IMG/VR virus record: IMGVR_UViG_3300015370_000516
Location: 21,472-85,471 of that record
Length of the DNA: 64,000 nucleotides
DNA from: a virus
Taxonomy: Duplodnaviria > Caudoviricetes
Direction: 5' to 3' (one strand)
A model generated the notes under the pieces. The model made no database searches, was not told the DNA's origin, and saw nothing but the letters and a program-made list of their open reading frames with translations. Numbering within the stretch: the first letter of the stretch is position 1; each line of letters starts with the position of its first letter. Below are positions 22,104-53,343 of this stretch, piece after piece. The position numbers were made by a program, and so were the translations under genes.

Positions 22104-22393
22104 TGCAGCGAACTACAGAAATGGTAGTAGCTACCATGATCAATGCCATTCCAATTAACAGGCTAATGGCAATCTGTGAAGATTTTGCTCTGGGGTCGGA
22201 ACCAACCGAGACCATAGACGTACTAAGGCAGCGGGTTAGGGCACACGTGGTCAATCTATCAGACGGGTTGACCCCAGTAGTTGCGCCGCCAGTAGATCCA
22301 GAGAAGAAGTCGGGGCTAAGAATAAAGAAATCCTCTCAGGACTTCGACCCCTTTGCACCCAAACGTCGGATTGTGCTCCAGAGACGAAAATAA
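22100..22393 (+). CDS. Hypothetical protein
   Basis: 97 aa ORF coupled to the clamp gene. Confidence 0.55.
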   Translation: MMQRTTEMVVATMINAIPINRLMAICEDFALGSEPTETIDVLRQRVRAHVVNLSDGLTPVVAPPVDPEKKSGLRIKKSSQDFDPFAPKRRIVLQRRK

Positions 22394-22394
22394 A

Positions 22395-23525
22395 CTACCC
22401 ACGAGTAACTTCGTGGATTTTAACCCTGTCATGGGACGAGTCTTCGGGCTGGTTTATAGCAGCCCCGACCGCGGCGATGTTCCGTGCCGCATTAACATCG
22501 GCATTTAGAACAGCACTACAGTTTGCACAGGAAAAGATTTGACCAGAACGATGCCCCAGACTGCCACAAAAAGAGCATATCTGGGATGTATAAGCGGGGT
22601 TAATTTTAATCACAGCGACCCCGGTTCGCATGGCCTTGTAGATAATCATCTGCTGAAGGGCGTAGAATGCCCAGCTATTGTGCAGACCTCGTTGGGATCT
22701 GCGCAGTTTTGGATTGGTGCGTTTCCGAATGTCCTTCAAGTTCTCCAGGGCGATGCTTCTGCCAGAAGCAGCAGCAGTTTCTACAATCTTTTTGCTGATG
22801 GTATGGTTGACGTTCTTGACGGCGCGAGATTCTTTGCCACTAAGCTGTTTGAGGGTACGACGGGCGTTTTTGCAAGTGCTCCGTTTTCCCGTTCCTGCCT
22901 TCGATTGAAGCGATCTGCGAGTTTTGTGCTGTTTCAATCGGTAAGTATTAAGAATCTCTCCACCAAACTGAACGCCATCCGATGTAGTTGCGATATTCTT
23001 AATTCCCAAATCCACCCCCAGAATTCCATCCGAAGTAGAGGATTCTGGGACATCCTCCTTAATCTGTATATTTATAAAATAATGCTTTTTGCCTTTGGTC
23101 AATTGTGCCGAAGTGGGATGTTGACCCGACAATGCTTGTCTTTGGTAATCTCCCAAATGAAGGTAAAACTTCTCTCGGCTCTCCAAGAGGGTAAGTTTCA
23201 CGCTCCAGTCATGTTCGTTGAAGGAAAAAATCCGTTCGTCAAAATCAACGCTGGAAGGTTTAAATCTGGAATTGGGGTTCCGTCTTAAAGCCACTGCTGT
23301 ACGTGCGATGGCACGGGATGCAAGATTAGCCTTCAGTTTAAAAATGGAACGTAGATTATAGTAGCATCCTCGATGAAGTGTGAATTGTCGTTTTTTGTCT
23401 GTCTTGCGTCCGTAATCCGCCACAAAATTGCAGGCTGCTGAAAAGGCTTTAAGGGTTCTTTCAATATGTTCCTGTTGTGGCTTTGTAGTCAACAATTTAC
23501 AGGATATAGTGCGGATGGCTTTCAT
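22395..23525 (-). CDS. tnpB: TnpB RNA-guided nuclease, catalytic residues intact
   Basis: GVDLG (RuvC-I), ALENL (RuvC-II), CSFC/CANC zinc finger, ADVNAARNI (RuvC-III). Confidence 0.95.
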   Translation of the reverse strand: MKAIRTISCKLLTTKPQQEHIERTLKAFSAACNFVADYGRKTDKKRQFTLHRGCYYNLRSIFKLKANLASRAIARTAVALRRNPNSRFKPSSVDFDERIFSFNEHDWSVKLTLLESREKFYLHLGDYQRQALSGQHPTSAQLTKGKKHYFINIQIKEDVPESSTSDGILGVDLGIKNIATTSDGVQFGGEILNTYRLKQHKTRRSLQSKAGTGKRSTCKNARRTLKQLSGKESRAVKNVNHTISKKIVETAAASGRSIALENLKDIRKRTNPKLRRSQRGLHNSWAFYALQQMIIYKAMRTGVAVIKINPAYTSQICSFCGSLGHRSGQIFSCANCSAVLNADVNAARNIAAVGAAINQPEDSSHDRVKIHEVTRG

Positions 23526-23531
23526 GCTCCA

Positions 23532-23560
23532 AATATAGCAAAACTTTCACTAAAAATCAA
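23532..23560 (-). promoter_or_regulatory. tnpB1 promoter
   Basis: TTGATT-N17-TATATT with TGn on the minus strand. Confidence 0.6.
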
Positions 23561-23638
23561 GAAGAATTTGAGAAATTTAACCAGAGCGGATGGCATAATT
23601 TCTACGATTGGAATCGTGGGGCTATTGTCATAAATATC

Positions 23639-26137
23639 ATGAGATGTACAGAATGTTCTCTATCCAAGACAGCAACACAGGAAGTAGAAGGCACTGGCCC
23701 CGTTAATACAGATACCCCAATTATGCTTATTGGGGAAGTTCCTGGAGAGGACGAGGATAAGCGGGGCGTTCCTTTTGTTGGTATAGCTGGTCAGCAAGTG
23801 CTGGATCCAATACTAAAGGCAGTTGGTCTGGATCGTAGAAAGATATGGATATTCAACGTATTGCGCTGCCGCCCGCAGAACAATAACATTGATTCTCCAG
23901 AAGCAAAAGATGGCTTAGGGATATGTCCTGGGCTATTTCTTTTTCCAGCTATAGAAGAACTCAGGCCCAAGATCATAGTTACTTTGGGTGCAATTTCCTC
24001 TAATCTACTTCTGGGCAGTAAGCGAGGTACTCGGCTGGCTGATTTACGGGGTCGCCCAGTTGAGAAATCCTTCGGGGAACACACCTGTTACGTAATGCCT
24101 TCCTATCACCCAGCATCGTTGTTACCAGGTCGTAATCCAGCTAACTATCAGATATTGCTTGAGGATATGCACCGAGCCGTTTCTTGGCTTAATGGTGCTC
24201 AGGTAGTAATTGCTGAGAAATATCGTACTTTAAAGTCGCGTACAATGGTTGATAAGTTTTTTGATTGGATGCATAATGGTGAAATGAATGATTTTATTTA
24301 TGACGTGGAAGCACAAGTATATGATGCTAACAGCAAACGCCCCAATATTTATAAGGACAAAATTCTGGGCATTAGTATTTCCTGGAGAGCTGGTCACGCT
24401 GTTTATCTTCCGTTACGTACCAGACCAGCTTTTAGTTATGAGTTGGAATCCTATTGGGGGGAGGATCAGGATTATGTAGTTGGTAGATTGAAAAAGGCTT
24501 TGGAAACTAATATAAGCAAAGGTGGGCAAAATGCTAAGTATGATAATATGATTTTAGAATGTGATTTAGGTATTAAGGTTTCTGGTTATAGTTTTGATAC
24601 TATGATTGCTTCTCATTTGCTTGATGAGAATCGAATGTCCCATGCCCTGGACGAACAGGTGCGTATTCATATACCAGAGAAATCGGGCTGGAAGGGCATG
24701 GCCCAGAAGGGAGACATGGCATCATTGTCTCTGGATACTATTGCGCAGTATTGTTGTTTAGACGCTGATTTAGAGCTTAGACTCAGAGACATTTATGCTG
24801 AACGTTTATGTAAGTACCCGCAATTTGAGCATCTATTTTATCATCATTGTATTCCTTACCAGCGCACTTTACAACGCATGGAATTAACCGGCGCACCGGT
24901 TGATGTATCAGCAGTTATCAAACTCAAAGCGGATTTGGAAGCTGAGATAACTAAAGCTGAAATCAGAATGCGTAAGGTTTTTGGAAGCACGGTTAATGTA
25001 GATTCCCCGACCGATGTTTATTTAGCGCTGAAGCAGAATGGCGTAGACGTAACGGCTTTAGAGGAAACCGATGATGATGATGTTCCTATTCTGGATGCTA
25101 AAGGGAATCCTAAGATAAGTACGAAAAAAGCTATGTTGGGTAGTTTATCGCAATCTTCGGGGTTGGTACAGTTGATTATGAATACCAGAGTGTTACAGAA
25201 AATGTTAAGTACCTATGTGATACCTATTGAGAGATTTCAGATAAACAATAGAATTCATGGATCATTTAAAATAACCGGAACGAAAACGGGGCGAATATCA
25301 AGTTCTGAACCCAATCTCCAAAACATCCCACGTGGTGGTGAACTTGATAATATAAGTCATGTTTGGGGCAAGCGGGTAAAGAGTGTTTATTGTGCTCAGG
25401 CTGGCTGGAAATTGATACAGGGCGATTTTTCACAAATGGAAGTTGGGGTATTGGCTGATTATTCCAGAGATGCAGCTCTGGTGGCTGCTTGTTCTACCGA
25501 AGATGTTCATTTTGCTGCAGCTTGTTCCTTATTTGGTTTGGATTTTAAAGAGGCGTATTCACGCTTTTTGCGGGGAGATCCATACTTGGCGAGTAGGCGG
25601 CAAATGATAAAGAGTATTGTATTTGGTCTTATTTACGGATCATCAGATGATTCTCTGGCAAAGTCTTATGGTCTTGACGTATCAGTGTTCAAAGATTTCC
25701 GGGCTAAATTCTTTCAGCGGTTTGGTGGGGTAGAGAAGTTTATTGGTAACACTCACCAGCAAATTGATGCTAATAAAGAAGTGATTTCCAAGTTTGGTCG
25801 GCATCGGAGAATACCCTACGCGGGACAAAAAGATAAATTGGGGAGAGCTCACCGGCAGGCGGTCAATAGTTTAATCCAAGGAACTGCCGCTGATATATGT
25901 GCCCAAGCTATCTATCGATTGGAAGATGAGTTAATAAAGTATAAGTACAGAGCCAGGCCAGTTTTAACAGTTCATGATTCTATTGTTACTGAAGTTCCTG
26001 ATGAGGAAGTGAACGAGGTTTGTGCTTTACAGCGTGAGATTATGCTGATGAAGCCGTTGCCGGATTTTAGCGTATCTTTGCGAGTCGATATTGAGGTAGG
26101 AGAACGCTGGAGTGAACTCAAGAAGGTGGGGGTATGA
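23639..26137 (+). CDS. polA: Family A DNA polymerase with N-terminal uracil-DNA-glycosylase (family 4-like) domain and 3'-5' exonuclease
   Basis: UDG: CTECSL...GEVPGEDED..G.PFVG...NVLRCRP...YHPA; exo: YDVE, NAKYD, YCCLDA; pol: TGRISSSEPNLQNIP, DFSQME, RQMIKSIVFGLIYG, TVHDS. Confidence 0.95.
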   Translation: MRCTECSLSKTATQEVEGTGPVNTDTPIMLIGEVPGEDEDKRGVPFVGIAGQQVLDPILKAVGLDRRKIWIFNVLRCRPQNNNIDSPEAKDGLGICPGLFLFPAIEELRPKIIVTLGAISSNLLLGSKRGTRLADLRGRPVEKSFGEHTCYVMPSYHPASLLPGRNPANYQILLEDMHRAVSWLNGAQVVIAEKYRTLKSRTMVDKFFDWMHNGEMNDFIYDVEAQVYDANSKRPNIYKDKILGISISWRAGHAVYLPLRTRPAFSYELESYWGEDQDYVVGRLKKALETNISKGGQNAKYDNMILECDLGIKVSGYSFDTMIASHLLDENRMSHALDEQVRIHIPEKSGWKGMAQKGDMASLSLDTIAQYCCLDADLELRLRDIYAERLCKYPQFEHLFYHHCIPYQRTLQRMELTGAPVDVSAVIKLKADLEAEITKAEIRMRKVFGSTVNVDSPTDVYLALKQNGVDVTALEETDDDDVPILDAKGNPKISTKKAMLGSLSQSSGLVQLIMNTRVLQKMLSTYVIPIERFQINNRIHGSFKITGTKTGRISSSEPNLQNIPRGGELDNISHVWGKRVKSVYCAQAGWKLIQGDFSQMEVGVLADYSRDAALVAACSTEDVHFAAACSLFGLDFKEAYSRFLRGDPYLASRRQMIKSIVFGLIYGSSDDSLAKSYGLDVSVFKDFRAKFFQRFGGVEKFIGNTHQQIDANKEVISKFGRHRRIPYAGQKDKLGRAHRQAVNSLIQGTAADICAQAIYRLEDELIKYKYRARPVLTVHDSIVTEVPDEEVNEVCALQREIMLMKPLPDFSVSLRVDIEVGERWSELKKVGV

Positions 26138-27186
26138 TATTTCCTAAAGACTATGAAAATAAAGTTATTTGTGGTGACTGTCTTAGTATTATGAAGGGGA
26201 TGCCGGATAAGTGCGTTAGTCTGGTGATTGCTGACCCGCCATATTATCGGATTGCTAACGAGAGTTGGGATAAGCAACATTCCAGCATTGCGGAATACAT
26301 AAAATGGCTTGAGCCTATCGCTATTGAATTAAAACGCTTACTTTGTGATCGTGGGAGTTTGTTTATCTTCGGTGATGATCGCAATATTGCCTATGTTCAA
26401 GTGCTATTTGATCAATATTTTGTCTTTTTGAATCATCTCGTTTGGCACAAAACAAACAATTTACCCCAGAAGAATGCTGCTAATCTGAAGTCTTTTCCAG
26501 TAATGAGTGAGCGTATTCTATACTATGGTCTTTATGGTGATAGAACTGGCTTACAATCTATCTATGAAAACCCAGATTGCTTTAATGCTATTAAGGCTTA
26601 TATGCGCCAAGAGAGAGATGCGCTTATGAAACATTTAGGACATAGTACGCTGGATCAATTCAACCAATATATCAATGATCTTACGGATACAAAAAGTGTA
26701 GTATCTCGTCATTATTTCTCTGACTCACAATGGGTATTCCCAACCGCTGAAATCTACGCTAAACTACAGACGGCGGGTTATTTTCAGCGTGAGTATAAAG
26801 GTTTTCAACGCGAGTATGAAAGTCTTAGACGCGAGTATGAAAGCCTTAGACGCGAGTATGAACCACAAAAAGGTATTCACGAAATTATTGCGCTGCCTAT
26901 TATATCAGGAAATGACAATACTGCACACCCGACAACTAAGCCGCTTGCACTTATGAAGATATTGATAAAGAGCGCCTCACGCGTTGGTGATTTAGTATTA
27001 GACCCGATGTGCGGCTCTGGCACAACCGCCGTTGCCGCGAAGCAACTCGGACGTCGTTTTATAGGAATTGAGATCAACCCCGACTATTGTAAAATTGCCA
27101 AAGATAGATTAGCCAATTTCATAGATGCAACAACAGAAGAACGTGCCCAAGCCGGACTTCCCATGAACTTTATGGATTTGCTATGA
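26134..27186 (+). CDS. Beta-class DNA amino-methyltransferase 1 (likely m6A)
   Basis: ADPPY, HPTTKP, VLDPMCGSGTT. Confidence 0.93.
   Translation: MIFPKDYENKVICGDCLSIMKGMPDKCVSLVIADPPYYRIANESWDKQHSSIAEYIKWLEPIAIELKRLLCDRGSLFIFGDDRNIAYVQVLFDQYFVFLNHLVWHKTNNLPQKNAANLKSFPVMSERILYYGLYGDRTGLQSIYENPDCFNAIKAYMRQERDALMKHLGHSTLDQFNQYINDLTDTKSVVSRHYFSDSQWVFPTAEIYAKLQTAGYFQREYKGFQREYESLRREYESLRREYEPQKGIHEIIALPIISGNDNTAHPTTKPLALMKILIKSASRVGDLVLDPMCGSGTTAVAAKQLGRRFIGIEINPDYCKIAKDRLANFIDATTEERAQAGLPMNFMDLL
26787..26862 (+). repeat. 21-bp in-frame tandem repeat (REYESLR heptads)
   Basis: acgcgagtatgaa at 26808, 26829 and 26850, plus a degenerate copy at 26787. Confidence 0.9.
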
Positions 27187-27995
27187 TTTGGGAACGAGAT
27201 TATATTGGTAAAGTTATTTGTGCTGATAGTTTGCAGGCACTAAGTTCTATACCAGAAAAGAGTATTGATCTTATTGTTACAGATCCTCCTTATGGTCATA
27301 ATAACAATGACGGTGATTTGATTGCTAATTGGGAAGCTGTTTTTGGTGGGGACAGAACTAAATCTAAGCCGCGTCCCATTGCCCAGGATGGGGTAGAGGC
27401 AAATGAACTTTATAAACAATTTCTGAAGGAAGCCTTTCGGGTTTTAAAGCCTGGCAGTTGTTGTTGTTGTTGTGGTGGTGGTGGTGGGCCAGACCCACAG
27501 TTTGCTCGGTGGTCTTTGTGGATGGATGAGGTGTTTCAATTTAAGCACATGGTTGTATGGGACAAAGGAGGGATGGGCCTAGGCCATCATTATCGGCGTA
27601 GTTATGAGACTATTCTGGTGGGGCAAAAGCCTGGGGCAGCTTGTAAATGGTATGATAAGTCCAAGAGGATTGAAAACGTAATCCGACCAGGTATGTACGG
27701 AATTCATAAAATAATACCCAATGAAAATCAGCATCCTACTGAGAAACCAGTAGAATTGATGCAATTTTTTATTGAGTTACATTCAACGGGGAATGACATT
27801 GTTCTCGATCCTTTTTGCGGTCATGGATCAACTCTGCTGGCTGCCAGAAAACTGGGAAGGCGGTTTATAGGCATAGACGTAGATGCTGGCTTTTGTGAGA
27901 TAAGCAGGAAAAAATTGGCAGAATTACATGGAGCTACAACAGAGGAACGTGCCGCCGCTGGGTTGCCAATGACTTTCTTGGACACACTTACATAA
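27183..27995 (+). CDS. Beta-class DNA amino-methyltransferase 2
   Basis: TDPPY, HPTEKP, VLDPFCGHGST. Confidence 0.93.
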   Translation: MIWERDYIGKVICADSLQALSSIPEKSIDLIVTDPPYGHNNNDGDLIANWEAVFGGDRTKSKPRPIAQDGVEANELYKQFLKEAFRVLKPGSCCCCCGGGGGPDPQFARWSLWMDEVFQFKHMVVWDKGGMGLGHHYRRSYETILVGQKPGAACKWYDKSKRIENVIRPGMYGIHKIIPNENQHPTEKPVELMQFFIELHSTGNDIVLDPFCGHGSTLLAARKLGRRFIGIDVDAGFCEISRKKLAELHGATTEERAAAGLPMTFLDTLT

Positions 27996-28014
27996 AAAAT
28001 TTAATAGATAGTAT

Positions 28015-28043
28015 TTGTAATATACAAGTAAAAGTATTATATT
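28015..28043 (+). promoter_or_regulatory. Sigma70-like promoter of the recombination operon
   Basis: TTGTAA-N17-TATATT upstream of recA. Confidence 0.7.
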
Positions 28044-28065
28044 ACCATAAAGCGATGATACTGAG

Positions 28066-29346
28066 GTGTTTGTGGCGGATCATAAACCATTAGTTGAAGC
28101 CTTCACCAAGAAATTCAATGCTCAGGTGGTTGTACCTTGGGACGGCAGCGCCCAGCAGGTAGACATAGGTCCTACACGCGTGACGCTGGCCAGTAACGTC
28201 AGGCAGGTACTGCCGGGCAGTGACTTTCTGATTCGTCTGAAGTCTATCCCAGAGATTATGAAACGGGATGTGTGGGATATTCCCGCACTAAGGAGTTCTG
28301 GTTTAATAGAGCCACAAGTTTCCAGAACCGTTCCTGTTGGGGCGTATAGACCTATGGGCAAGAAGCCAAAGATTATTTACCCCACCGGTATTCTTAGCGT
28401 TGACTTGGCATTGAGCGGTGGATTTATGGGTAGTATTCTATCACGTATTTGGGGAGCTTCCACCGGTGGTAAATCCGTTATTCTGTACATGGCGATGATT
28501 ACTGCTTGGCAGTTGTACGGAAAGAAAAGTTTGCTGATAAACCCTGAGTTTGACTTTGACGAAGATCGCTTTTCAGTTTTGCCAGGTGGCAAGACTATGC
28601 TGGAAAGCGAAGGGCTTTTAGTGTACGATCCGGGGGCAAGTGCCGATGCTTATGATAAAGTTATTGATTTAGTCGGAAGTGCCGCGTATGCTATTATTGG
28701 GTTTGATAGTCTAACTCCCCTAAAGTCAGAATCTGAACTATCTAAATCATTCAGTGATGAACCGCGCGTGGCTGACAAGGCCAAGGCACAGACTCGGTTT
28801 TTGGAAGACGTTTTGCCTCATTTATATCATAAAAGTAAATCTGCTCTTATTATGATTGTACAGTCCAGAAAACGATTGGGTGATACTCGTAGTGGAATGA
28901 TGTCTCAGTTCGATGAAGTTAGTGGTAGCTACGGAGCTTCTGGAGATAAACCTGCATCTGGGGATGCCCTGCAATTTTACACACAGCAGTCTCTAAAAGT
29001 CTTTCCCCCTACTAAGCTGGTCTACGAAAAGGGAACACGTAATATTCTCGGACATCAGATAACTGGTCTGGTTGACAAGAACAAACGAGCGCCACAGGGA
29101 ACTCGCTTTGGGTTTTACATTGATTACCGTACCGGGTTGGACTTGGATCTTCAGATTGTTAATGCTGCTATTGAGGCTGGGATCATAGAACTTAGAAAGC
29201 AGAAGCATGTGGTTCAATTAGATGGGCAAGAGCAGATATTTGATTCCGGGCGGGAATGCCGATTAGCTCTATCGGCAGATCGAGAATTGCGCAAGGCAGT
29301 CTATTTGGGGGTACTAAAGCACGTGAATCCAGATTTCAGGATTTAG
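28066..29346 (+). CDS. recA: RecA/UvsX-like recombinase with N-terminal extension
   Basis: TGILSVDLALSGG, Walker A GASTGGKS, IGFDSL, SGDALQFY, VDKNK. Confidence 0.92.
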   Translation: MFVADHKPLVEAFTKKFNAQVVVPWDGSAQQVDIGPTRVTLASNVRQVLPGSDFLIRLKSIPEIMKRDVWDIPALRSSGLIEPQVSRTVPVGAYRPMGKKPKIIYPTGILSVDLALSGGFMGSILSRIWGASTGGKSVILYMAMITAWQLYGKKSLLINPEFDFDEDRFSVLPGGKTMLESEGLLVYDPGASADAYDKVIDLVGSAAYAIIGFDSLTPLKSESELSKSFSDEPRVADKAKAQTRFLEDVLPHLYHKSKSALIMIVQSRKRLGDTRSGMMSQFDEVSGSYGASGDKPASGDALQFYTQQSLKVFPPTKLVYEKGTRNILGHQITGLVDKNKRAPQGTRFGFYIDYRTGLDLDLQIVNAAIEAGIIELRKQKHVVQLDGQEQIFDSGRECRLALSADRELRKAVYLGVLKHVNPDFRI

Positions 29347-29361
29347 AAGAGGGACTATAAC

Positions 29362-29679
29362 ATGGTAACAAGAATTACTGGCGTAAGCGTCTCCTCTAAG
29401 ATGGCTTGCATGTACAGCAAAGAAGAAATAATCACCTTTGAAGTACAAGCTAATGCCGTCTTTGCAGAAATCAACGAAGAGCCAATTGACGGGGGTTGGG
29501 TCAAGGCTGAAATCCAAAGGCTTTTCAATGAAGTAGTTGATCCAGCTATCCGAGAGGAGTATAGGGCGTATGGTCAAAAGAATGAACTATTTCGTTTAAC
29601 TGCTCAAGTAGTCAGACCACAGGCTATCAAACATTACAAATTGTTACTGGAGAGGCAGAATTCAAGTACCCACGATTGA
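29362..29679 (+). CDS. Hypothetical protein; C-terminal residues (SSTHD) encoded by the IS relic
   Basis: 105 aa ORF ending inside the 46-bp element. Confidence 0.6.
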   Translation: MVTRITGVSVSSKMACMYSKEEIITFEVQANAVFAEINEEPIDGGWVKAEIQRLFNEVVDPAIREEYRAYGQKNELFRLTAQVVRPQAIKHYKLLLERQNSSTHD

Positions 29680-29706
29680 AGTCATGGGTTTCCTGTCACA
29701 AGAATC
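29661..29706 (-). mobile_element. 46-bp collapsed IS200/IS605 relic (right end fused to left end)
   Basis: First 20 nt identical to 52123-52142; last 26 nt match 53318-53343 with 1 mismatch. Confidence 0.9.
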
Positions 29707-30300
29707 ATGAAAATTACTAAATCAACGGTTGCTGGTCCTGTATCTCGGTTGCTTGGTAACCCGGAGCTTGTTCCAATACCATATATAGGATACCGAAGTC
29801 TCGAAGAAATAAGTTCATCCCTTGAAGATGTTCAGTTGCCTGATTTCAGTCAGATGCACTCTGAACTTGTGAGAATTGGAGATGTTACAATTTCTGATGA
29901 TCCTACCGCGATGGGGCTAAAGGAATTTAATGCAAATCTTGCTAAGGCTGCCGAGGGTTACAGGAAATTGACGGTCTACCGTGCTGAGTGTATTGCCATT
30001 CGATCGGAGTGGGCGAGTTTGAAGATTGATTTTAATCGGTTATTGGATCAGATGAAAAGAGATGGTATGAAAACCGCTGGGTACGAGGTCTGCAAGAACG
30101 TTCAAGATAGAACAGCTTATCTGGATAATTTCGTTTCCGACTATAATTTGGAAATGGCTGTGGTTGAGCAGGCATTACAGAGATGTGCAGACTTTGTGGA
30201 AGTGTGCCGCGTCTTAGGAAAGGGACTGGATGCTCTATTATTGGTATTAAGTAAACAAGTAGAAATCCTAAAAATACAAGCAAAAGTAGAAGGAGTCTAA
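29707..30300 (+). CDS. Helical hypothetical protein (possible recombination mediator)
   Basis: 197 aa helical pattern between recA and the SSB-like gene; function is inference only. Confidence 0.45.
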   Translation: MKITKSTVAGPVSRLLGNPELVPIPYIGYRSLEEISSSLEDVQLPDFSQMHSELVRIGDVTISDDPTAMGLKEFNANLAKAAEGYRKLTVYRAECIAIRSEWASLKIDFNRLLDQMKRDGMKTAGYEVCKNVQDRTAYLDNFVSDYNLEMAVVEQALQRCADFVEVCRVLGKGLDALLLVLSKQVEILKIQAKVEGV

Positions 30301-30301
30301 C

Positions 30302-38997: not shown

Positions 38998-39155
38998 GAA
39001 TCGTAAGAATGAGATGTTTCGATGTATTAGTTGTGGGTACACAGAGGATGCTGACCTCAATGCATCTCGAAACATTCTCAATAGATTCCTCTTCCAGGAA
39101 CATACAGACCCTGGGCAACAAGTTAAATCCTTGGTATGTTAAGGAGATAATTCCG
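38998..39155 (+). ncRNA. Orphan tnpB 3'-end / omega-RNA-like unit (copy B)
   Basis: Translates as NRKNEMFRCISCGYTEDADLNASRNILNRF; homologous to copy A; ends tgttaaggagataattccg. Confidence 0.65.
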
Positions 39156-43986: not shown

Positions 43987-44339
43987 TGCTGTGGCAATTT
44001 GCCGTTCTAAACGAGGGTGAACGTGAAGCCCCGCTGGGCATTGTTGTTCACCAGATTGGCCATGTCCCCAAATGGATTACTACCAACAAGCAAGCCGAAA
44101 CGGTTTTTGGGGTATTGTTTAATCGTGATACGGTTTATGCTAATGTCTTGGGTCCTGGCGGGTCTTACTCCAGAGTAAAAAAGACTTATAGCGATGCAGA
44201 CTATTTGGATTATGCAAGTACCAAAGTGAGTCTGCCAACGTACATACAAATACGAGGAAGTTGGAACACGGAAGTATCAGATTTAGATCAAGTACTGAAA
44301 CAGTTGAGCGTTAAATTTCTCGGAGACGATCATGTCTAA
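43983..44339 (+). CDS. Small hypothetical protein downstream of the portal-MuF fusion
   Basis: 118 aa, overlapping stop/start. Confidence 0.6.
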   Translation: MMLWQFAVLNEGEREAPLGIVVHQIGHVPKWITTNKQAETVFGVLFNRDTVYANVLGPGGSYSRVKKTYSDADYLDYASTKVSLPTYIQIRGSWNTEVSDLDQVLKQLSVKFLGDDHV

Positions 44340-45174: not shown

Positions 45175-45185
45175 TAAAAAAGTGC

Positions 45186-45214
45186 TTGTATTTTTAATAG
45201 GAATTGGCTAAATT
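45186..45214 (+). promoter_or_regulatory. Sigma70-like promoter of the glycosylation cluster
   Basis: TTGTAT-N17-TAAATT. Confidence 0.65.
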
Positions 45215-45242
45215 AACTTGAGAGGATACTGAGGAGACATTT

Positions 45243-46025
45243 GTGTGGTGTAATTGTGATAAACCAGAAGTTGACATTTTTGTAACCACCTGTAATCATG
45301 CTTCCTGGATTGAGAAGGCTATGGCCAGCGCCGCTGATCAGGAGTTCAGACGCGCACATAATATTTATCTTTATGATGATCATTCCACAAAAGAAGCCTT
45401 TCACCCCATTTCTGGTCTAAAATTAGGTGGGGCGCGCCAGGTGCTATGGAAACTTCAGGAGGTAGGTTTTGACGTTGTTATTTCCAGAGATAACGTCGGA
45501 GTGTGTAAAGCTCGTAATGATTTGGCTAAACGCGGCTCAGCTCCATGGATGCTATTTTTGGATGGAGATGATTATATTGACAGTAAATTTTTGGAGATGG
45601 TGTGGCGTAAGGCGCAGACCGAGCAAGCTGACGTTGTTTATCCTAAAGTAGCTATATTTACGGATCAGGGTTTAGCTCAGCATGGGACTATTGACCAAGG
45701 GGTTGAGTTTGATCGGGTCAGGTTATTGCGCAGTAACTATATTCCGGTAACGGCTTTAATACGCCGGGAGCTTTTTTTATCTTGTAACGGCTTTGATGAG
45801 AATATGAAGTATGGCTTCGAAGATTGGTCCCTATGGATCACTCTTTTGGGTCTGGGGGCTAAATTCGTTTTTGAACCTGCTGCTGTGCTGTACTACAGAC
45901 ACCACGCAGCAGCCAGAAGCCACACCGCAAATGCTAAGTTTAGGGAAATTTTTGAGTATATTAAGGCTGACCACGCCGAACTGTACAATATGATTATGCA
46001 ACCCAGAGTTGAATGGTTGGAGTAA
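45243..46025 (+). CDS. Glycosyltransferase family 2
   Basis: YLYDDHS, NVGVCKARN, LFLDGDD, GFEDWSLW. Confidence 0.92.
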   Translation: MWCNCDKPEVDIFVTTCNHASWIEKAMASAADQEFRRAHNIYLYDDHSTKEAFHPISGLKLGGARQVLWKLQEVGFDVVISRDNVGVCKARNDLAKRGSAPWMLFLDGDDYIDSKFLEMVWRKAQTEQADVVYPKVAIFTDQGLAQHGTIDQGVEFDRVRLLRSNYIPVTALIRRELFLSCNGFDENMKYGFEDWSLWITLLGLGAKFVFEPAAVLYYRHHAAARSHTANAKFREIFEYIKADHAELYNMIMQPRVEWLE

Positions 46026-46047
46026 CCCACTGACCAGAAGGATTTCG

Positions 46048-46839
46048 ATGGAACAGGCTTATCTGTCAGACGTTAATCTATTCAAAAGCCCATCTTCCCA
46101 GAGTGATATGTTCGATGTTCCTATTAAAGGTCACCACGCCTTTGCCAGTGTAGTGGGCACATTCTTTAATATTCTGGGAGCCAGGGTAGTGTCTGGTGAG
46201 TTGTTAGCTACCTGCAATGGTTTTACTCTATGCCCTGATTTAGTTGTAAGAGATGCTTGTACCGTATTAGAAGTTAAGGCAGCGTCTACCAAGACTATGT
46301 TCAGAGTGGCAGTGGAGCAGCTTAACAAGTATAAGGAATTAGGTTCTCGTGGGTTTAGGGTCTTGTACGCTTTATTTGAACATGGGATGCGGGACGGTTT
46401 TAAACGGCTGCCACAAAAAACTATAAAATCGGCTATGGGGCAATTGGCGTTGAACACGCGATTTCTACTGGTGCTGGATCTTTCCATAATTTGTAGAGGA
46501 TTGGAGATTGCCAGAAGTACAGATAATCCCAGAATGGCATTTGTTGAAGAGGGTGTTTTCTATGGCGCTCACTTGAGCTTATCGCATACCAAAGTTCGTA
46601 AGTTTTTGAATACCCCGGTACAGGCATTAGCTGAGTTGGGGCTTTCTTTGTCTGATTACTTTACGATTCAGAGCGCAGTTACTGGGGTCAGCGTGGGCGA
46701 TTTTGGAGTGTCTGATTTCCCTATAACTTACATCTTGAGAAAGGATCAGTTGACTAAGAAGAAAACACCCATGAGTGCCAAGGAAATAGAAATACTTATA
46801 GGACCAGCAGAGCCACAGGTGGACAATGCCCCATTTTAG
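46048..46839 (+). CDS. PD-(D/E)xK nuclease-like protein
   Basis: CPDLVV...LEVKAAS...EQLNKY. Confidence 0.6.
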   Translation: MEQAYLSDVNLFKSPSSQSDMFDVPIKGHHAFASVVGTFFNILGARVVSGELLATCNGFTLCPDLVVRDACTVLEVKAASTKTMFRVAVEQLNKYKELGSRGFRVLYALFEHGMRDGFKRLPQKTIKSAMGQLALNTRFLLVLDLSIICRGLEIARSTDNPRMAFVEEGVFYGAHLSLSHTKVRKFLNTPVQALAELGLSLSDYFTIQSAVTGVSVGDFGVSDFPITYILRKDQLTKKKTPMSAKEIEILIGPAEPQVDNAPF

Positions 46840-47779
46840 AAAAATCCTTTTTTGTGCCCCCAGATTCGATTACGGCTTGCCTGAGTTGGGAGCTTCTCCG
46901 GAGGAGTTGCACATGGTACATACTCTTCTGGACATGGGTGTGCAGGTGGAACGCTTTGACTTCCGCAAGCTTATTCAGGAGTTGGGTTCTCCTCAAATTG
47001 TAAATGAGGCGCTAAGGACTGAATTAGACAATGACTACGATGCTGTCTTTTACGTTCCTTTTGAGGGATGGGAAATTAGTGATGAAACCTGGGTTTTTGG
47101 AACTGACGTTATTAAAATTATTTGGTTGTTTAATGATGCTTGGCGTTACCCCCAGCTTGGCAAAGAGAAGTGTTGGAGTTTTAACGTAGTTGTCTCGGAT
47201 GACCCCAGAGCAGTTGATAAATATAAAAGTATTTCTTATGACGGTAAAGTTGTGTATTTGCCAAGAGCTTGTCGGACTGGCTGGCTTTCTGGGGCTGCCC
47301 CAGAAGATGTCCGACTCTACGATCTAACTTTTATAGGCAGTCCTTATGGGCAGCGTACCCAAATTGCCACAGCCATCAAAGAGCTTCTGCCAGACTTAAA
47401 CATTTTTATTGGGCATGTTGATGGTCGTAAACTACCTTGGGAAGAATATATTAGGGTGCTACGTTCAACTAAAATAGGGCTTAGTCTGGGCATGGCCTCC
47501 GGGGGTACGGAAATGCAGATAAAAATGCGGGACTTCGAGATCTCTGCCTCCGGGGCTATGTTGTTATCAAATAATCCTGGCTTAGAGGAAGTCTACGATC
47601 TTGGTGTAGAGGCAATACTCTTTGGGCAAGCAGAGGACATCTTGACTAAGGTGCGGTATTTTCTGGATCATCCGGACGATAGGATTAAGGTAGCAACGGC
47701 TGGGCAGTCAAGAACGTTAGCTGAGCATGATTATACAAATAGGTTCACAACTTTGTTTTCTTTACTTGGAAATTCTTGA
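46826..47779 (+). CDS. CgeB-like GT-B glycosyltransferase
   Basis: WLFNDAWR, DLTFIGSPYGQR, KMRDFEISASGAMLL, EHDYTNR. Confidence 0.85.
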   Translation: MPHFRKILFCAPRFDYGLPELGASPEELHMVHTLLDMGVQVERFDFRKLIQELGSPQIVNEALRTELDNDYDAVFYVPFEGWEISDETWVFGTDVIKIIWLFNDAWRYPQLGKEKCWSFNVVVSDDPRAVDKYKSISYDGKVVYLPRACRTGWLSGAAPEDVRLYDLTFIGSPYGQRTQIATAIKELLPDLNIFIGHVDGRKLPWEEYIRVLRSTKIGLSLGMASGGTEMQIKMRDFEISASGAMLLSNNPGLEEVYDLGVEAILFGQAEDILTKVRYFLDHPDDRIKVATAGQSRTLAEHDYTNRFTTLFSLLGNS

Positions 47780-48591
47780 TGTACAATTTGAATGAAATAG
47801 TTAATAAAGTGCATTGTGCTGATTGTCTTGAATTCTTACGAGATATGCCAAGTGCTTGTATTCCTTTGATAGTGACCAGTCCGCCTTATTTTGCATTTCA
47901 AGAATATGAGAATTTGGTGGGGTATGCTGATTACCCAGCTTTTATGCAAGGACTCTTAGATCGATTCAGGGAATGTTGTCGGGTTCTGATTCCTGGTGGA
48001 AGGTTGGTCATAAATATTGATGATAAACATGGGGGGATTACAACGCATAAAGAATCTTGTTGCTATCCTACGCATGCATCTCTTATTCAGGGTATTTTGA
48101 GCAGCAATGATATAATTTATAAAGGTAATATTTTTTGGGATAAGGGCGCACGTGGGGGACATGCTACCGGAGGAGCATCTCACATGTTGGGTAGTTATCC
48201 ATATCCTTCTGAAATTCCTATTATAACGAATTATGAGTATATTTTGGTATTCAAAAAGCTGGGCAAACGTGTGATTGTTGACAAGAGCACATCTCGTTTG
48301 ACTTATGATGATTTCAAAACTGCAATAGGAATTTGGAAGATAGCTGCTGAGAAAAAGAGAGATGATCACCCCTGTCCGTTTCCAATAGAAATACCTGGTC
48401 GAATTATAAAGCTATTCTCTTTTGTCGGCGATGTTGTGCTTGATCCTTTTATTGGTTCTGGTACAACAGCGTTGGCTGCGCGTAAACTGGATCGTAAATT
48501 CTTGGGCATTGATCTTAGTCCTGAATACTGTGCTTTTGCCCAAGAACGAGTTGCGAGTCTTCCTAAGACTTTCTTGGACTTGCTAAAATGA
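47776..48591 (+). CDS. Beta-class DNA amino-methyltransferase 4 (SPPY, likely m4C)
   Basis: TSPPYF, HPCPFP, VLDPFIGSGTT. Confidence 0.93.
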   Translation: MMYNLNEIVNKVHCADCLEFLRDMPSACIPLIVTSPPYFAFQEYENLVGYADYPAFMQGLLDRFRECCRVLIPGGRLVINIDDKHGGITTHKESCCYPTHASLIQGILSSNDIIYKGNIFWDKGARGGHATGGASHMLGSYPYPSEIPIITNYEYILVFKKLGKRVIVDKSTSRLTYDDFKTAIGIWKIAAEKKRDDHPCPFPIEIPGRIIKLFSFVGDVVLDPFIGSGTTALAARKLDRKFLGIDLSPEYCAFAQERVASLPKTFLDLLK

Positions 48592-49367
48592 AAAATCCGA
48601 GTATAAACATTGGACCCACCGCGGCTCCGATAGTTTCAATCCTGATGCCGGTGTATAATGCAGAAAAGTATCTGCATCAGTCCGTTGCCTCGATCTTAGA
48701 ACAAAAGGGCGTGTCTAAGTTTGAGGTGATCATCATTGATGATGGCTCCACCGATAAATCGTTTGACATCCTGCAGGAGATGGGTGACGAGCGTTTTTTA
48801 ATCCTGCGCCAACGTGAAAACAAGGGCATAGTTCGTTCTCTTAATATTGGCATGCTCCGCACCACTGCTCCGTTAATTGCCCGCATGGATGCAGATGATG
48901 TAATGCACCCAGAGCGGTTGATAAAGCAAATTAACTTCATGCGACAGAATCCTTTTTTGACAGCTTGTGGGACTTATTTCGATTATATTAACGAGGATAG
49001 TAGGGTTACTGGGGCAGCTATGCAATTTCCTATTCAACCACCTGATGTCAGAGAGGCGTTTAAGAAGTTTACGGCTATAGGTCATCCTACTGCGATGTTT
49101 AGGAAGGACTTCTTGTTCAAATTGGCTCCGGATTTATACTCTTCTAAGTACCCGTATTGCGCTGAGGATTTGGGGTTGTGGCTTAAGTTGTTGTCCAGAA
49201 AAGCGCTTCTGGCAAATCTCGGAGAAGTACTTTTACATTATAGAGTACATTCCGGTCAAACGGGGGCAAAGGTACGTGGAAGAGAAAAGGAACAGGTAGC
49301 ATTGGTCTATCAAGATTGGGCGCATTTGGTGTGGCCTGCAAAAGAAGAGATTGAGGTGCAAGCATGA
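48588..49367 (+). CDS. Glycosyltransferase family 2
   Basis: SILMPVYN, IIDDGSTD, ARMDADD, CAEDLGLW, YRVH. Confidence 0.93.
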   Translation: MKNPSINIGPTAAPIVSILMPVYNAEKYLHQSVASILEQKGVSKFEVIIIDDGSTDKSFDILQEMGDERFLILRQRENKGIVRSLNIGMLRTTAPLIARMDADDVMHPERLIKQINFMRQNPFLTACGTYFDYINEDSRVTGAAMQFPIQPPDVREAFKKFTAIGHPTAMFRKDFLFKLAPDLYSSKYPYCAEDLGLWLKLLSRKALLANLGEVLLHYRVHSGQTGAKVRGREKEQVALVYQDWAHLVWPAKEEIEVQA

Positions 49368-50143
49368 GCCTATATCACGACCATTATGATTTAATCCATT
49401 CTCAGAAGGACTACTCCGCTGAGGTGGAAACGATTGTACAGGCTTACAGGCAAACCGCTAATACTAAATTTTTGGGTCGGGTGCTGGACGTGGGATGTGG
49501 AACAGGCAATCATAGCCTGGAATTGGCTAAGCAGGCTGCCGGAGTCCTTGGAATAGATACTGACCCCCCTATGGTGGAGAAAGCCCAGCAGAAGGCATCG
49601 TGTGGGGCTGGAAAGGCTAAATTCCTTTATACATCTGTCCAAGAGCTAATGGATTTTGGATTCGATCTGACAATTTCCATGTTTAACGTGGTAAATTACA
49701 TTGAAACGCTTCCTGAGTTGTTGTCTTTCTTTGCAGCTATCTACAGGCGCTTGAATCATAATGGGGTATTCGTTTTTGATGTCTGGAACGGAACAGCAGT
49801 TTTAAGAGATCCTCCTAAAAAGGAAGAACGCAACATTCAGGTGGGGGGTATAACGGTTACAAGAAAGACAATAATTCAGAAAATTGATCCTATTGTGGTA
49901 GGTGACACAATTCATATAAATAATCATTGTAATGTTCTTCAGTTACCAGCCGCTGCTGGTGGGCAATATGTAGTAGACACAAACTTTGACTATGTTACAA
50001 TCATGCGGCTATGGTCAAAAACGATCTTGGAAGAAGTGGCATTGATTGCCGGATTCACTACGGAGTTTTTCAAATGGTATGATTTGACTGTTCCAGCCGA
50101 CCACGACACCTGGAAACTTCTGGGTGTATGCCACAAGAAATAG
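49364..50143 (+). CDS. Class I SAM methyltransferase resembling amino-sugar N-methyltransferases (TylM1/DesVI-like)
   Basis: YDLIHSQKDYSAEV, VLDVGCGTG, FDLTISMFNVVNY, LNHNGVFVFD. Confidence 0.75.
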   Translation: MSLYHDHYDLIHSQKDYSAEVETIVQAYRQTANTKFLGRVLDVGCGTGNHSLELAKQAAGVLGIDTDPPMVEKAQQKASCGAGKAKFLYTSVQELMDFGFDLTISMFNVVNYIETLPELLSFFAAIYRRLNHNGVFVFDVWNGTAVLRDPPKKEERNIQVGGITVTRKTIIQKIDPIVVGDTIHINNHCNVLQLPAAAGGQYVVDTNFDYVTIMRLWSKTILEEVALIAGFTTEFFKWYDLTVPADHDTWKLLGVCHKK

Positions 50144-50156
50144 AAGAGAAACTATA

Positions 50157-51254
50157 ATGAAAGTCCCACACATGATCCCCCTTATCGGGGAAGAAGAATA
50201 TGTTCAGATCAAGGATTGCTTGGATTCCAAATGGTTATCCGAGGGTACTAAAGCTGACCAGTTTTTACGTATCTTTAAAAAGCTCACAGGGGCTAAGTAT
50301 GCAGTTCTTGCACCTAACGGTACTTTGGCTCTTTATATGGCGCTGAAGGCTGTTGGGGTGGGGGAAGGTGACTATGTTATGGTTCCGGATAGCACTTTCA
50401 TGGGGTCTGCTACCGCTGTAGTTCTTGCCGGAGCTACTCCGGTTTTTGTGGATGTGAACTTGGATTCTTGGCAACTTGACTTTGTTGCGTGTAAAAGTCT
50501 TAAATATGATCATAGCATTAGGGCAATAATGCCGGTACATCTGTGTGGCCATTCTGTGGATATGCCTACATTTATGGAAATGATGGGTGGGTATGCTCCG
50601 GTAATTATAGAAGATGCCTGCCAAACGGTTGGCGTTACCTTTGCTGGTAAGCACACCGGTACATTTGGCAAGGTGGGGGCTTTTAGTTTCTACAGTGATA
50701 AGTCATTTACTATGGGGGAGGGTGGGGCTGTAATTACTGATGATCCGGAGGTATATGCTAAGCTGAGATACTTACGGTGTCTGGGGAGACTCAGCAAGGG
50801 CAGCTACGTGCATGTGGAAAATGGATTCAACTTTTACATTACTGATTTGCAAGCTGCCATAGGTATAGCTCAGTTGGAGAGGATCAATAAGATAAAAAGT
50901 CGTAAAATGGTTTTGTATCAGCATTATAGAGCAAACCTGCTTGACTTAGCCGCTGCTGAAAAAATACATTTTCCGGTTATTCCTAAAGAATCATCGCTCA
51001 TACCATTTCGTATGTTTATACGTACAGAGGCGTTGGCCGATGATTTGATCAAATATCTGGCCAGTAAAGAAATAGGTGCTCGTGGGTTTTACTACCCACT
51101 GCACCGGCAGCCTTGTTTTTCTCATCTAATGGATTCGAGAAAGTTTCCCAACGCGGATTTGCTTTATCATCATGCTCTGCTGCTTCCGCTCTATCCTGAC
51201 TTGACCGAAGAGCAGGTAGATTATGTATGTGCCGCGCTAAAGGAATATTTTTAA
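50157..51254 (+). CDS. DegT/DnrJ/EryC1/StrS PLP sugar aminotransferase
   Basis: NGTLAL, AIMPVHLCG, IEDACQ, FSFYSDKSFTMGEGG. Confidence 0.93.
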   Translation: MKVPHMIPLIGEEEYVQIKDCLDSKWLSEGTKADQFLRIFKKLTGAKYAVLAPNGTLALYMALKAVGVGEGDYVMVPDSTFMGSATAVVLAGATPVFVDVNLDSWQLDFVACKSLKYDHSIRAIMPVHLCGHSVDMPTFMEMMGGYAPVIIEDACQTVGVTFAGKHTGTFGKVGAFSFYSDKSFTMGEGGAVITDDPEVYAKLRYLRCLGRLSKGSYVHVENGFNFYITDLQAAIGIAQLERINKIKSRKMVLYQHYRANLLDLAAAEKIHFPVIPKESSLIPFRMFIRTEALADDLIKYLASKEIGARGFYYPLHRQPCFSHLMDSRKFPNADLLYHHALLLPLYPDLTEEQVDYVCAALKEYF

Positions 51255-52141
51255 TGAAAAACAGGGTTTATACTGCCGAAGAATTGGTCCAGCTTTTACG
51301 CCAAAAATATAGTAGTCCAGACCGTTATGTGGTACTTGAACAGGTTGCTGATAGTACTGGGATAGGTTGGCATTCTTGGATTGATGCTGTTGTCTTGTGG
51401 CTTTGGCCTTCGGATGGTATAAAGCGTGCTGCTTTTGAGGTTAAAGTATCCAGGCAGGATTGGCTGCATGAAATTCAGCGCATTAACAAGAATGCTTGGG
51501 CTCGTGAGTACTTTCATGAGTTTTGGTTTCTTGCTCCTGATTTTGTAATTCAGATTGAGGAATTGCCCGAAGGTTCCGGGTGGATGAAACCGGTTGGATC
51601 GGGTCTTCGCATTATGCGTGCCGCATCACGTAAGGACAATCCGGCTTGTGACGATGCATTGATTTCGTCTTTGGCAAGATCTATGCAAAAGTACATCGCC
51701 AAGTCTGGGAAAGAGGCTTATAGATCAGCAAAGGAAGACGATATTGACTACAGCTCTGCCAAGAAATGGGAAGAGGTTGGCCGGGCTTTTCTACAGAGCC
51801 ATGGTATAATGAATGTGTATACGGTGGAAGTTTCTGACTTTGAACGTGCCAGTGGGGATGCCGGGACTCGAAGGACTGCGGAACAGATGCAAGATGTTCT
51901 GATTGGCCTACGTAGTAAAATGCAGAATTCCTTAGCGCATCATATAGCGATGGCCTATTTAGCACTTGATGCCACAGACGAAGCCGGTCAGTATCTTCTA
52001 AATATGTGGAATTTGGGGGTTGAAGCACGTGGCGATGTTGCCGCTTCGCTTGTTAAACAAAAAGAACTAATTCTAATACAAGTGCAAGATATTTTAAAAA
52101 GTCTTAAACTTAGCAGTCAATTTTCAAGTACCCACGATTGA
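51254..52141 (+). CDS. MmcB-like PD-(D/E)xK protein; C-terminal residues (SSTHD) encoded by the IS end
   Basis: WIDAVVL...AFEVKVSRQDWLHE...EFWFLAP...ELPEGSG. Confidence 0.7.
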   Translation: MKNRVYTAEELVQLLRQKYSSPDRYVVLEQVADSTGIGWHSWIDAVVLWLWPSDGIKRAAFEVKVSRQDWLHEIQRINKNAWAREYFHEFWFLAPDFVIQIEELPEGSGWMKPVGSGLRIMRAASRKDNPACDDALISSLARSMQKYIAKSGKEAYRSAKEDDIDYSSAKKWEEVGRAFLQSHGIMNVYTVEVSDFERASGDAGTRRTAEQMQDVLIGLRSKMQNSLAHHIAMAYLALDATDEAGQYLLNMWNLGVEARGDVAASLVKQKELILIQVQDILKSLKLSSQFSSTHD

Positions 52142-53236
52142 AATCGTGGGATTGTAAGTCATCGTTAGTTTGATGCCTACGATAGGTTGCTTGAAATCAA
52201 CCCGTTTAGAAATAACTTTAGCAGCATTAAGGTCAGCATTTTCAGAATGTCCACAACTACAGCAAACAAATTCAGCTTGATTTTTCCGGTTAGCTTTGTC
52301 TGTATAGCTGCAGCAAGAACATTCTCTTGATGTGTTTCTTGGATCAACCAGAACGACAGGGATGCCGTCTCTTAATGCTTTGTAGCTCAGAAATGTTCTT
52401 AATTGAAAGAATGCCCAACTACTGTGTTTAGCTCGTTCCGATTTCCTTACCGTGACTCTTGTTCGGATGCCTTTGAGGTCTTCAAGAGCGAATCCTTGTT
52501 GAGTGTCTTTAGCTTTCTGAACGAGTTTCTTGGAAACGCAATGGTTTACATCTGTTCTGAATCGAGATTCATTTCGTCTGATTTTTTTAAGGTGACGTTT
52601 AGCCGATTTGGTTCCTTTGGCTTGGAGATTGGCTCTGAGATTAGAGTATCGTTGTCGTACTTGTTCGACTTGCTTACCGGAGAACGATTCTCCTGTACTA
52701 TCGGTAGCGATGTTGATTATGCCAAGGTCAATGCCAATGAATCCGGTAGGTACTATTGGTGGTATTTCGGTAGTTTCAACGGTAGCCAGCAGGTAGAAGA
52801 TGCTATCTACGAGAACTAAATCAGCTTGTCCTCGTGCATGTTTCATTCTTTCAAGTTGGTAGCCGGAAAGAATCATGGGAATGGTTTGACGACCGACAAG
52901 AGTCCAGAGGCTAACGGATTCCAAGCCTTTGAATCGCATGATTCGACTATCATAGATAACAGCCCCAAGTGGCTTAAACTGGAGTTGAACTCGTTTCTTA
53001 CGCCCGGCATCGCAAACTTTACCTATAGCGCGAGCAGCCATTTGAGCAGAAAGTTCAAATTTAGATTTAACATTATAATATACAATTTTATGAAGGTTGA
53101 ATGCAGACCAGTTATTTTCATTGAAAGCAACTTCAGCAATGTAATTACAAGCAGCATTAAATTGTATCATCGTCTGCTTGAGAATCTCATGCTGTTCAGC
53201 AGACGGGCAAAGTTTTATTTTGAGTGTAGTCTTCAT
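52124..53236 (-). CDS. tnpB: TnpB RNA-guided nuclease, catalytic residues intact
   Basis: GIDLG, ALEDL, CSCC/CCSC zinc finger, ADLNAA. Confidence 0.95.
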   Translation of the reverse strand: MKTTLKIKLCPSAEQHEILKQTMIQFNAACNYIAEVAFNENNWSAFNLHKIVYYNVKSKFELSAQMAARAIGKVCDAGRKKRVQLQFKPLGAVIYDSRIMRFKGLESVSLWTLVGRQTIPMILSGYQLERMKHARGQADLVLVDSIFYLLATVETTEIPPIVPTGFIGIDLGIINIATDSTGESFSGKQVEQVRQRYSNLRANLQAKGTKSAKRHLKKIRRNESRFRTDVNHCVSKKLVQKAKDTQQGFALEDLKGIRTRVTVRKSERAKHSSWAFFQLRTFLSYKALRDGIPVVLVDPRNTSRECSCCSYTDKANRKNQAEFVCCSCGHSENADLNAAKVISKRVDFKQPIVGIKLTMTYNPTISIVGT

Positions 53237-53248
53237 ATTTTTATGACC

Positions 53249-53277
53249 AATATACTCATAAGATTTGAAGAAGTCAA
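53249..53277 (-). promoter_or_regulatory. tnpB2 promoter
   Basis: TTGACT-N17-TATATT on the minus strand. Confidence 0.65.
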
Positions 53278-53343
53278 GTACTATTTAACTGGAGGTGGCA
53301 TTCCTCCCACGACTGAAGTCATGGGTTTCCTGCCACAAGAATC

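Follow-up and report, generated by a model that had tools for sequence, protein, structure and literature searches.

The stretch of DNA analysed here, which we call the window, is 64,000 nucleotides long and corresponds to bases 21,472-85,471 of an 85,471-bp IMG/VR virus record (IMGVR_UViG_3300015370_000516), itself about 46% complete. It carries three insertions of the IS200/IS605 type of insertion sequence (IS), designated E1 (window positions 22390-23638, 1249 bp), E2 (29661-29706, 46 nt) and E3 (52123-53343, 1221 bp). All three lie on the minus strand, and each separates two genes that overlap by an ATGA once the insertion is removed. Without them the window has about 90 genes, all on the plus strand, and is 97% coding; the only substantial open reading frames (ORFs) on the minus strand are the two tnpB genes, which are carried by E1 and E3.

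Direct reading of the sequence confirmed the coordinates and orientation given in the initial annotation of the window, together with the presence of TCAT immediately 5' of each left end. In element orientation all three begin TCAT/GAT..., where the slash marks the boundary; E1 ends ...GTTTAT/, while E2 and E3 both end ...CTTGAA/. The complement of each TCAT is the ATGA at which the downstream gene starts, located on the plus strand at 23639-23642 for E1, 29707-29710 for E2 and 53344-53347 for E3. The first of these genes encodes an 832-aa fusion of a uracil-DNA glycosylase (UDG), a 3'-5' exonuclease and a family-A polymerase (UDG-exo-PolA), the second is a 197-aa ORF, and the third encodes an N6/N4 DNA methyltransferase. 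Excision in silico joins the flanks as gacgaaaATGAgat (22390-23638 removed), ggcagaaATGAaaa (29661-29706 removed) and gtcaattATGAatc (52123-53343 removed). As had been proposed, this gives the overlaps ...cga aaA TGA, ...cag aaA TGA and ...caa ttA TGA, in which the ATG belongs to the downstream gene. The frame that closes at the TGA is open for 100, 105 and 308 codons respectively, and the other two frames for 3-50 codons.

With the elements in place, the upstream genes end at in-frame stop codons that come from the right ends of the elements, again as originally read: TAA at 22391-22393, TGA at 29677-29679 and TGA at 52139-52141. The ORF upstream of E1 (22100-22393, plus strand) keeps its C-terminus unaltered, with K followed by the stop. 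In the ORF upstream of E2 (29362-29679, plus strand) the last residue changes from K to N and SSTHD is appended, and in that upstream of E3 (51227-52141, plus strand) the last residue changes from L to F and the same five residues follow. Two otherwise unrelated proteins, with no other similarity, both end in ...SSTHD. For annotation this is a warning that shared short C-terminal tails of this kind, and "orphan" hairpins at gene junctions, are transposon scars.

The assignment of the elements to the IS200/IS605 type was borne out by the proteins. Both TnpBs carry the Pfam domains OrfB_IS605 and Cas12f1-like_TNB, and both match solved TnpB/Cas12f structures. tnpB1 (22395-23525, minus strand, 376 aa) matches PF07282 (1.6e-22) and PF01385, and its D/E/D and CxxC motifs align with those of TnpB2. 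tnpB2 (52124-53236, minus strand, 370 aa) also has Pfam matches, and its residues D170, E252 and D335 and its zinc-finger cysteines are invariant in the alignment of homologues. The two proteins are 35% identical, and the RuvC D/E/D and zinc-finger residues are intact in both. A sigma-70-like promoter match is located inside the left end ahead of each gene (TTGATT-17-TATATT at 23560-23532 and TTGACT-17-TATATT at 53277-53249). Both tnpB genes look functional.

E1 and E3 have a subterminal hairpin at each end and lack both terminal inverted repeats and target-site duplication; their flanks differ between the two sides. The right end of E1 (22390-22420, minus strand) is a hairpin at 22397-22418 followed by an 8-nt tail, which supplies the TAA when read on the plus strand. 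That of E3 (52123-52150, minus strand) is a hairpin at 52131-52150, again with an 8-nt tail, and here it is the loop that reads TGA on the plus strand. The left end of E3 (53237-53343, minus strand) has its hairpin at 53306-53325, with an A just 5' of it that is discussed below; the left end of E1 (23526-23638, minus strand) has a degenerate hairpin at approximately 23602-23620. E1 is present as a single copy in the record, and its boundary is ambiguous by one A. A Y1 transposase (TnpA, PF01797) was looked for and gave no match in the 85-kb, approximately 46% complete record, in which positive controls were detected; E1 and E3 are therefore called non-autonomous, like many members of the family.

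This anatomy is similar to that of ISDra2 and of the TnpB-only (IS1341-type) elements with their omega-RNA-guided TnpB nucleases (PMC8612924), which also combine a RuvC and zinc-finger TnpB with subterminal hairpins, lack inverted repeats and target duplication, insert 3' of a fixed tetranucleotide that doubles as the transposon-adjacent motif (TAM), and have a tnpB ORF that runs into the right end. The differences from ISDra2 are that the TAM is TCAT here and not TTGAT, that there is no TnpA in cis, and that the elements are in a virus genome, antisense within operons.

E2 is a 46-nt solo relic on the minus strand, with one hybrid hairpin at 29669-29688. It consists of the first 26-30 nt of the E3 left end joined to the last 16-20 nt of the E3 right end, with 45 of 46 positions matching, and the crossover falls in the loop that is common to both E3 end hairpins. 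On this match E2 is an E3-type copy whose interior has been deleted, a remnant comparable to a solo long terminal repeat, and is not a separate kind of element. No further E2-like copies were found in the record, and the exact left-end pattern had no match in viral contigs. IS200/IS605 derivatives that resemble palindrome-associated or miniature inverted-repeat transposable elements (PATEs, MITEs) likewise retain only end sequences and a hairpin, but they occur as multiple dispersed copies with both ends functional, whereas E2 has 46 nt, a single hybrid hairpin and a single copy in the record. E2 resembles a scar left by a deletion, not a miniature that is mobile.

The initial annotation took the flanking TCAT to be the TAM. 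No close phage relatives with empty alleles were found by megablast against phages, by searches of viral contigs with polA, the methyltransferase and the 197-aa ORF, or by single-protein searches with TnpB1 and TnpB2. Relatives of the transposons were used in their place for this question, and were drawn from a genome scan, five whole genomes, two viral-contig scans, and a metagenome scan with the exact left-end hairpin. TnpB2 has 5067 homologues at E<=1e-30; a protein 85% identical to it (P0002) is encoded on 22 contigs, and the identical protein on 4 contigs. After de-duplication, 114 relatives were parsed algorithmically, a few of the right ends being set by a short motif or by size.

In all 114 parsed relatives, TCAT (68) or TCAC (46) ends 17-22 nt 5' of the left-end hairpin, and the sequence farther out is unrelated. 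The right-end hairpin and its tail are also conserved, the element stopping 8 nt beyond the hairpin with ...T[G/T]A[C/T]. The boundaries of the window elements are thereby backed independently: they start right after TCAY, 17-22 nt 5' of the left-end hairpin, and end 8 nt past the right-end hairpin, as in 93 relatives. The fourth base of the TAM covaries with the base just 5' of the hairpin stem (T:A in 59/64, C:G in 35/41; Fisher p=8e-21), and supported branches of the TnpB tree show at least 8 changes of TAM type. Such Watson-Crick covariation is predicted by the mechanism of IS608, in which bases that lie 5' of the hairpin foot recognize the cleavage site by pairing with it (PMC5934647, PMC3201880); the evidence here is comparative. 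The T:A and C:G covariation makes the TAM predictable from sequence, which helps in the mining of compact genome editors. The share of TCAT did not differ significantly between viral and cellular contigs (p=0.11).

The left ends of E2 and E3 carry the A that is paired with TCAT, and TCAT is therefore their cognate site. For these two elements the earlier reading stands, on the conserved TCAY and the covariation: the tetranucleotide behaves as the left cleavage site and TAM, and is one that the element itself recognizes at its left end. For TnpB1 it is insecure. The left end of E1 has a G at the covarying position, as in TCAC-type elements, and because of this G the cognate TAM of E1 may be TCAC. 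The nearest sampled relatives of TnpB1 (from loci L219, L130 and L132) are also TCAC-type, with 99% support, and GTGA junctions are occupied in the TCAC set too, where the TGA closes a long frame in 10/33. In that case the junction would once have been GTGA, with a GTG start for polA that later became ATG, or TCAT would have been entered by a G:T wobble with the guide base of the left end. We regard this as less likely than not, given that the degenerate left end makes the alignment of the covarying position less sure, that the nearest relatives of TnpB1 are just 41-44% identical to it, and that one TCAT relative (L188) has a G as well.

In the left end of E1 (window 23577-23646), several positions differ from the family consensus through G-to-A changes (GGA to ATA, and GGGAGG to AGAAAT), and the hairpin is weakened. 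E1 may no longer be mobile, to judge from these changes, while its tnpB ORF is intact.

A TAM of the same TCAY class is on record. That of AmaTnpB, from Alicyclobacillus macrosporangiidus, is given as 5'-TCAC in PMC10278001 (citing Altae-Tran 2021). The likeness is one of TAM class, and most of the sampled relatives of TnpB1 and TnpB2 share TCAC and the same left-end architecture. The window elements differ in being flanked by TCAT, and E2 and E3 in carrying the A that covaries with T. E1 and E3 are new members of a well-known family, and their TAM is a one-base variant of a published TAM. No report combining TnpB, TCAT and TAM was found in the library searched.

The next point is how often such an element would meet a junction by chance. 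After in-silico excision the phage sequence has 791 TCAT sites, which served as background. Of these, 743 interrupt a coding sequence and 48 are tolerated, the latter comprising 14 ATGA overlaps, 12 non-overlapping starts, 17 intergenic sites and 5 sites in the last two codons of a gene. The finding of three out of three elements in overlaps has p=5.5e-6 against all 791 sites, 14 of them overlaps. Pure coincidence, with three insertions in ATGA overlaps and no link between motif and site, might be argued from the small number of events (three) and from the post hoc nature of the observation. That is nevertheless highly improbable, in view of this p value, of the TCAT that is fixed by the element, and of the recurrence of the habit in 68 independent relatives. 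Orientation bias was considered as a separate signal and rejected, since the minus strand already holds 41 of the 48 tolerated TCAT sites.

The relatives were surveyed for junctions by excising each element in silico and then reading the antisense strand. In 44/68 cases a TCAT relative adjoins the ATG of an antisense ORF that is 60 aa or longer. Where the right end is defined (n=60), there is an exact ATGA overlap with long frames on both sides in 15/60, the TGA closes a frame of at least 60 codons in 18/60, and 28/60 are held in co-directional gene junctions of at most 25 nt. Examples are L062 and L084 (both Planctomycetes), L078, and the viral L144, L182, L196 and L255. TCAC elements have an analogous GTGA pattern (10/33).

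All other TCAT sites of the same loci formed the background for the relatives, with crude ORF calls. A first background test on 36 elements gave no enrichment of TCAT elements over tolerated sites; a larger set did show an excess, the ORF calls being crude in both. In the larger set the share of relatives inside ORFs is far below that of background TCAT sites (0.31 against 0.72, p=1.4e-10; 18/59 TCAT relatives scored in-ORF), and their share is raised at overlaps (0.17 against 0.03, p=1.8e-5) as well as at starts (0.31 against 0.09, p=3.7e-6). Generic non-coding sites are depleted among their insertions. When non-ORF sites alone are compared, overlaps are enriched approximately 3-fold (0.24 vs 0.106, p=0.018), a significance that is inflated because the tolerated background class takes in small genes and regulatory DNA. 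The corresponding values are 0.30 vs 0.081 for loci of at most 50% GC (p=0.0018) and 0.31 vs 0.075 for TCAC (p=0.008).

One TCAT-type element on a viral contig (L150, approximately 2391-3616) is placed differently: it occupies an ATGA that lies in frame within a long ORF, with approximately 597 codons upstream and 253 downstream. The ORF is split into two translatable halves, and the right-end stop closes the first of them.

It had been suggested that junctions offer a ready supply of harmless landing sites. TCAT relatives in both bacteria and viral contigs do sit at ATG starts and ATGA overlaps, and junctions are therefore a general landing niche. This gives a simple, testable rule for where a large group of TnpB/IscB transposons can live harmlessly, namely at the ATGA and GTGA overlaps of operons. 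The excess over tolerated sites is modest (p≈0.02 for the phage, 0.002-0.02 for the relatives), and to that extent the suggestion is weakened. Broad purifying selection is still able to explain the residual preference for junctions, so that the caveat made at the outset, that purifying selection may suffice, stands. We conclude that TAM identity and purifying selection account for most of the pattern.

The replacement stop is not peculiar to the window. When the reverse-complemented right end is read in the frame of a gene that ended at the junction TGA, a stop is reached within 6 codons in 56/60 TCAT elements and in 31/33 TCAC elements; in 33/60 TCAT elements it is immediate. The other two frames stop within 6 codons in 28/60 and 6/60 (TCAT) and in 20/33 and 1/33 (TCAC). 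Three types of right end set the stop in the relevant frame: ...TTGAC with TAA or TGA in the loop, ...GTTTAC read as G/TAA, and ...CATGAC read as G/TCA/TGA. The tail of E1, ...GTTTAT, resembles the ...GTTTAC that was found in 31 TCAT relatives. As far as these comparisons go, the right-end stop is evidently a trait of the family and not a local accident.

The trait is suggestive of adaptation to the junction niche; structural constraints may instead have produced it as a side effect. In its full form an adaptive account would hold that the TCAY clade, whose TAM is the complement of the junction, has adapted specifically to [A/G]TGA junctions, that the right end evolved its in-frame stop, and that a guide on the conserved 3' end of a gene, beside a conserved start codon, favours homing among co-infecting phages, so that more than survivorship is at work. 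The bias towards the relevant frame, the three right-end types that all place a stop in it, and the enrichment of overlaps even among non-ORF sites fit such a history, as does the phage value of p≈0.02. Against it, the elements share descent, so that the preferred frame counts as roughly three independent observations (approximately 0.04 by chance), and the lengths of the right-end tail and stem are constrained by TnpA and the guide RNA. The tolerated background comes from crude ORF calls with the inflation already described, 18/59 TCAT relatives still lie in ORFs, and the element of L150 interrupts a long ORF where that ORF has an in-frame ATG. We consider this adaptive history rather unlikely.

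In the library searched, no literature was found on a junction habit among reports on start/stop codon overlaps and IS200/IS605, nor any description linking the TCAY TAM class, RTGA junctions and the right-end stop. The connection is of interest as a regularity, and known rules account for most of it.

Two side features were noted at the ends of the relatives. A right-end loop TTTAG (for example in L070, L072, L076, L090 and L091) often serves as a two-way stop: on the top strand its TAG closes the tnpB frame, and on the bottom strand it supplies a TAA. In a subset of TCAT-type elements (L070, L176, L205, L206, L204, L084 and others), the reverse complement of the start of the left end (first 15 nt) places GGAGG or GGAG at a distance of 4-8 nt ahead of the flanking ATG, where it could stand in for the Shine-Dalgarno sequence that the insertion has pushed away. 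The feature is absent from the window elements.

The explanation that we favour, and consider likely, is that E1 and E3 are two different non-autonomous, TnpB-only IS200/IS605 elements and E2 an E3-type remnant, all inserted 3' of TCAT by TnpA acting in trans, with selection leaving the survivors at junctions. A Y1 transposase, presumably from the host, would insert each element 3' of a minus-strand TCAT. Since the commonest stop/start overlap, ATGA, reads TCAT on the other strand, every ATGA junction of a one-directional, 97%-coding phage is a potential target at which the element necessarily lands antisense. This explains the antisense orientation in one-directional phage genomes. Insertion one base ahead of the ATG would leave the downstream start codon intact, and the upstream gene would be deprived of nothing but its stop and the third base of its last sense codon. 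The reverse-complemented right end would then restore a stop, at once in E1 and after five codons, in the hairpin loop, in E2 and E3. The downstream genes would lose their upstream Shine-Dalgarno context. Insertions at approximately 94% of TCAT sites, which are inside genes, would be lost from the population, and as a consequence of this loss the survivors would pile up at junctions.

By the established TnpB model (PMC8612924), alleles without the element would in addition be cut, the guide RNA leading TnpB to TCAT and the final 16 nt of the upstream gene. The predicted 16-nt guide/target of TnpB1 is the flank 3' of the right end at 22374-22389 (minus strand), in the last codons of ORF 22100-22393, and that of TnpB2 would be 52107-52122 (minus strand), in the last codons of ORF 51227-52141.

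Several observations weigh against this explanation. No empty allele was seen, so that precise insertion into a pre-existing ATGA is an inference. When three out of three overlaps is compared with the 48 tolerated phage sites, p is only ≈0.02, in a test that was post hoc. No Rfam family was found for an omega-RNA at the gathering score. The left end of E1 has the TCAC-linked G and a degenerate hairpin, and its TCAT flank possibly reflects a G:T wobble or a later GTG-to-ATG change. Finally, some of the closest left-end relatives, L120 and L121, are found not at a start but 17-20 nt ahead of one.

These last two belong to a group of metagenome loci (L120-L122) that have a hairpin identical to the left end of E3, again with TCAT before it. 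The gene in L121 (5762-7141, minus strand) is not a tnpB. It is IscB-like, with RRXRR and HNH and 459 aa, and reads towards the end with the E3-identical hairpin and TCAT flank, as expected for IscB elements. TnpB and IscB cargos appear to share one set of transposon ends, on the strength of this identity. L120 (2842-3229) has an internally deleted copy of the IscB-like element of L121.

The intact tnpB ORFs with their own promoter-like sites, and the TnpB genes found in hundreds of phage records, could also be read as a domesticated function. The TnpB and guide units would then not be selfish passengers; the phage would keep them for regulation or as weapons directed at rival phages. There is a theoretical proposal of non-restorative homing during phage co-infection (PMC13565253), and an IS gene drive has been demonstrated in plasmids (PMC11870625). 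On the other hand there is no evidence that the insertions are conserved across phages, E2 shows that copies decay, and the intact catalytic residues mean that these proteins are not TldR-like repressors. Domestication is accordingly judged quite improbable.

Another parallel is with the free-standing homing endonuclease genes that lie between conserved genes of T-even phages (reviewed in PMC13565253), which are also selfish nuclease genes at the junctions of dense phage operons with the potential to cut the element-less allele in a co-infection. The difference is that targeting here would be RNA-guided and arrival would be by transposition, and the homing is putative. If the right-end stop and the junction preference should prove adaptive, this would be a transposon shaped to cut the cost to its host, and a candidate RNA-guided phage homing system. 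Taken to its limit, the whole TCAY clade would be specialized for [A/G]TGA operon overlaps, with a left end that spares the start codon, a built-in stop at the right end and a guide on the conserved tail of the upstream gene, and would form efficient and nearly harmless gene drives in dense phage genomes. We hold this to be unlikely.

Some minor observations concern other parts of the window. The 304-aa protein upstream of E3 (51227-52141) was initially labelled MmcB-like, a label that Pfam does not support, no family matching the protein even at E=1. Homologues reach no more than 43% identity, and their C-termini are too variable to confirm the ancestral stop. They are approximately 300 aa long and have a conserved E-x-K...D motif block in the N-terminal half.

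A different tail, resembling a tnpB 3' end with its right end, is repeated at window positions 17413-17583, 38998-39155, 11817-11860, 61525-61553 and 63357-63379 (families D6, D9, D10 and I2), in sense orientation beside gene starts. These repeated tails look like relics of a third IS type. At 14669-14933 there is an iteron-like array of a 33-bp direct repeat, in 5-9 near-perfect copies with an inverted partner (D1/D2), which may be a replication origin or an array of regulator binding sites.

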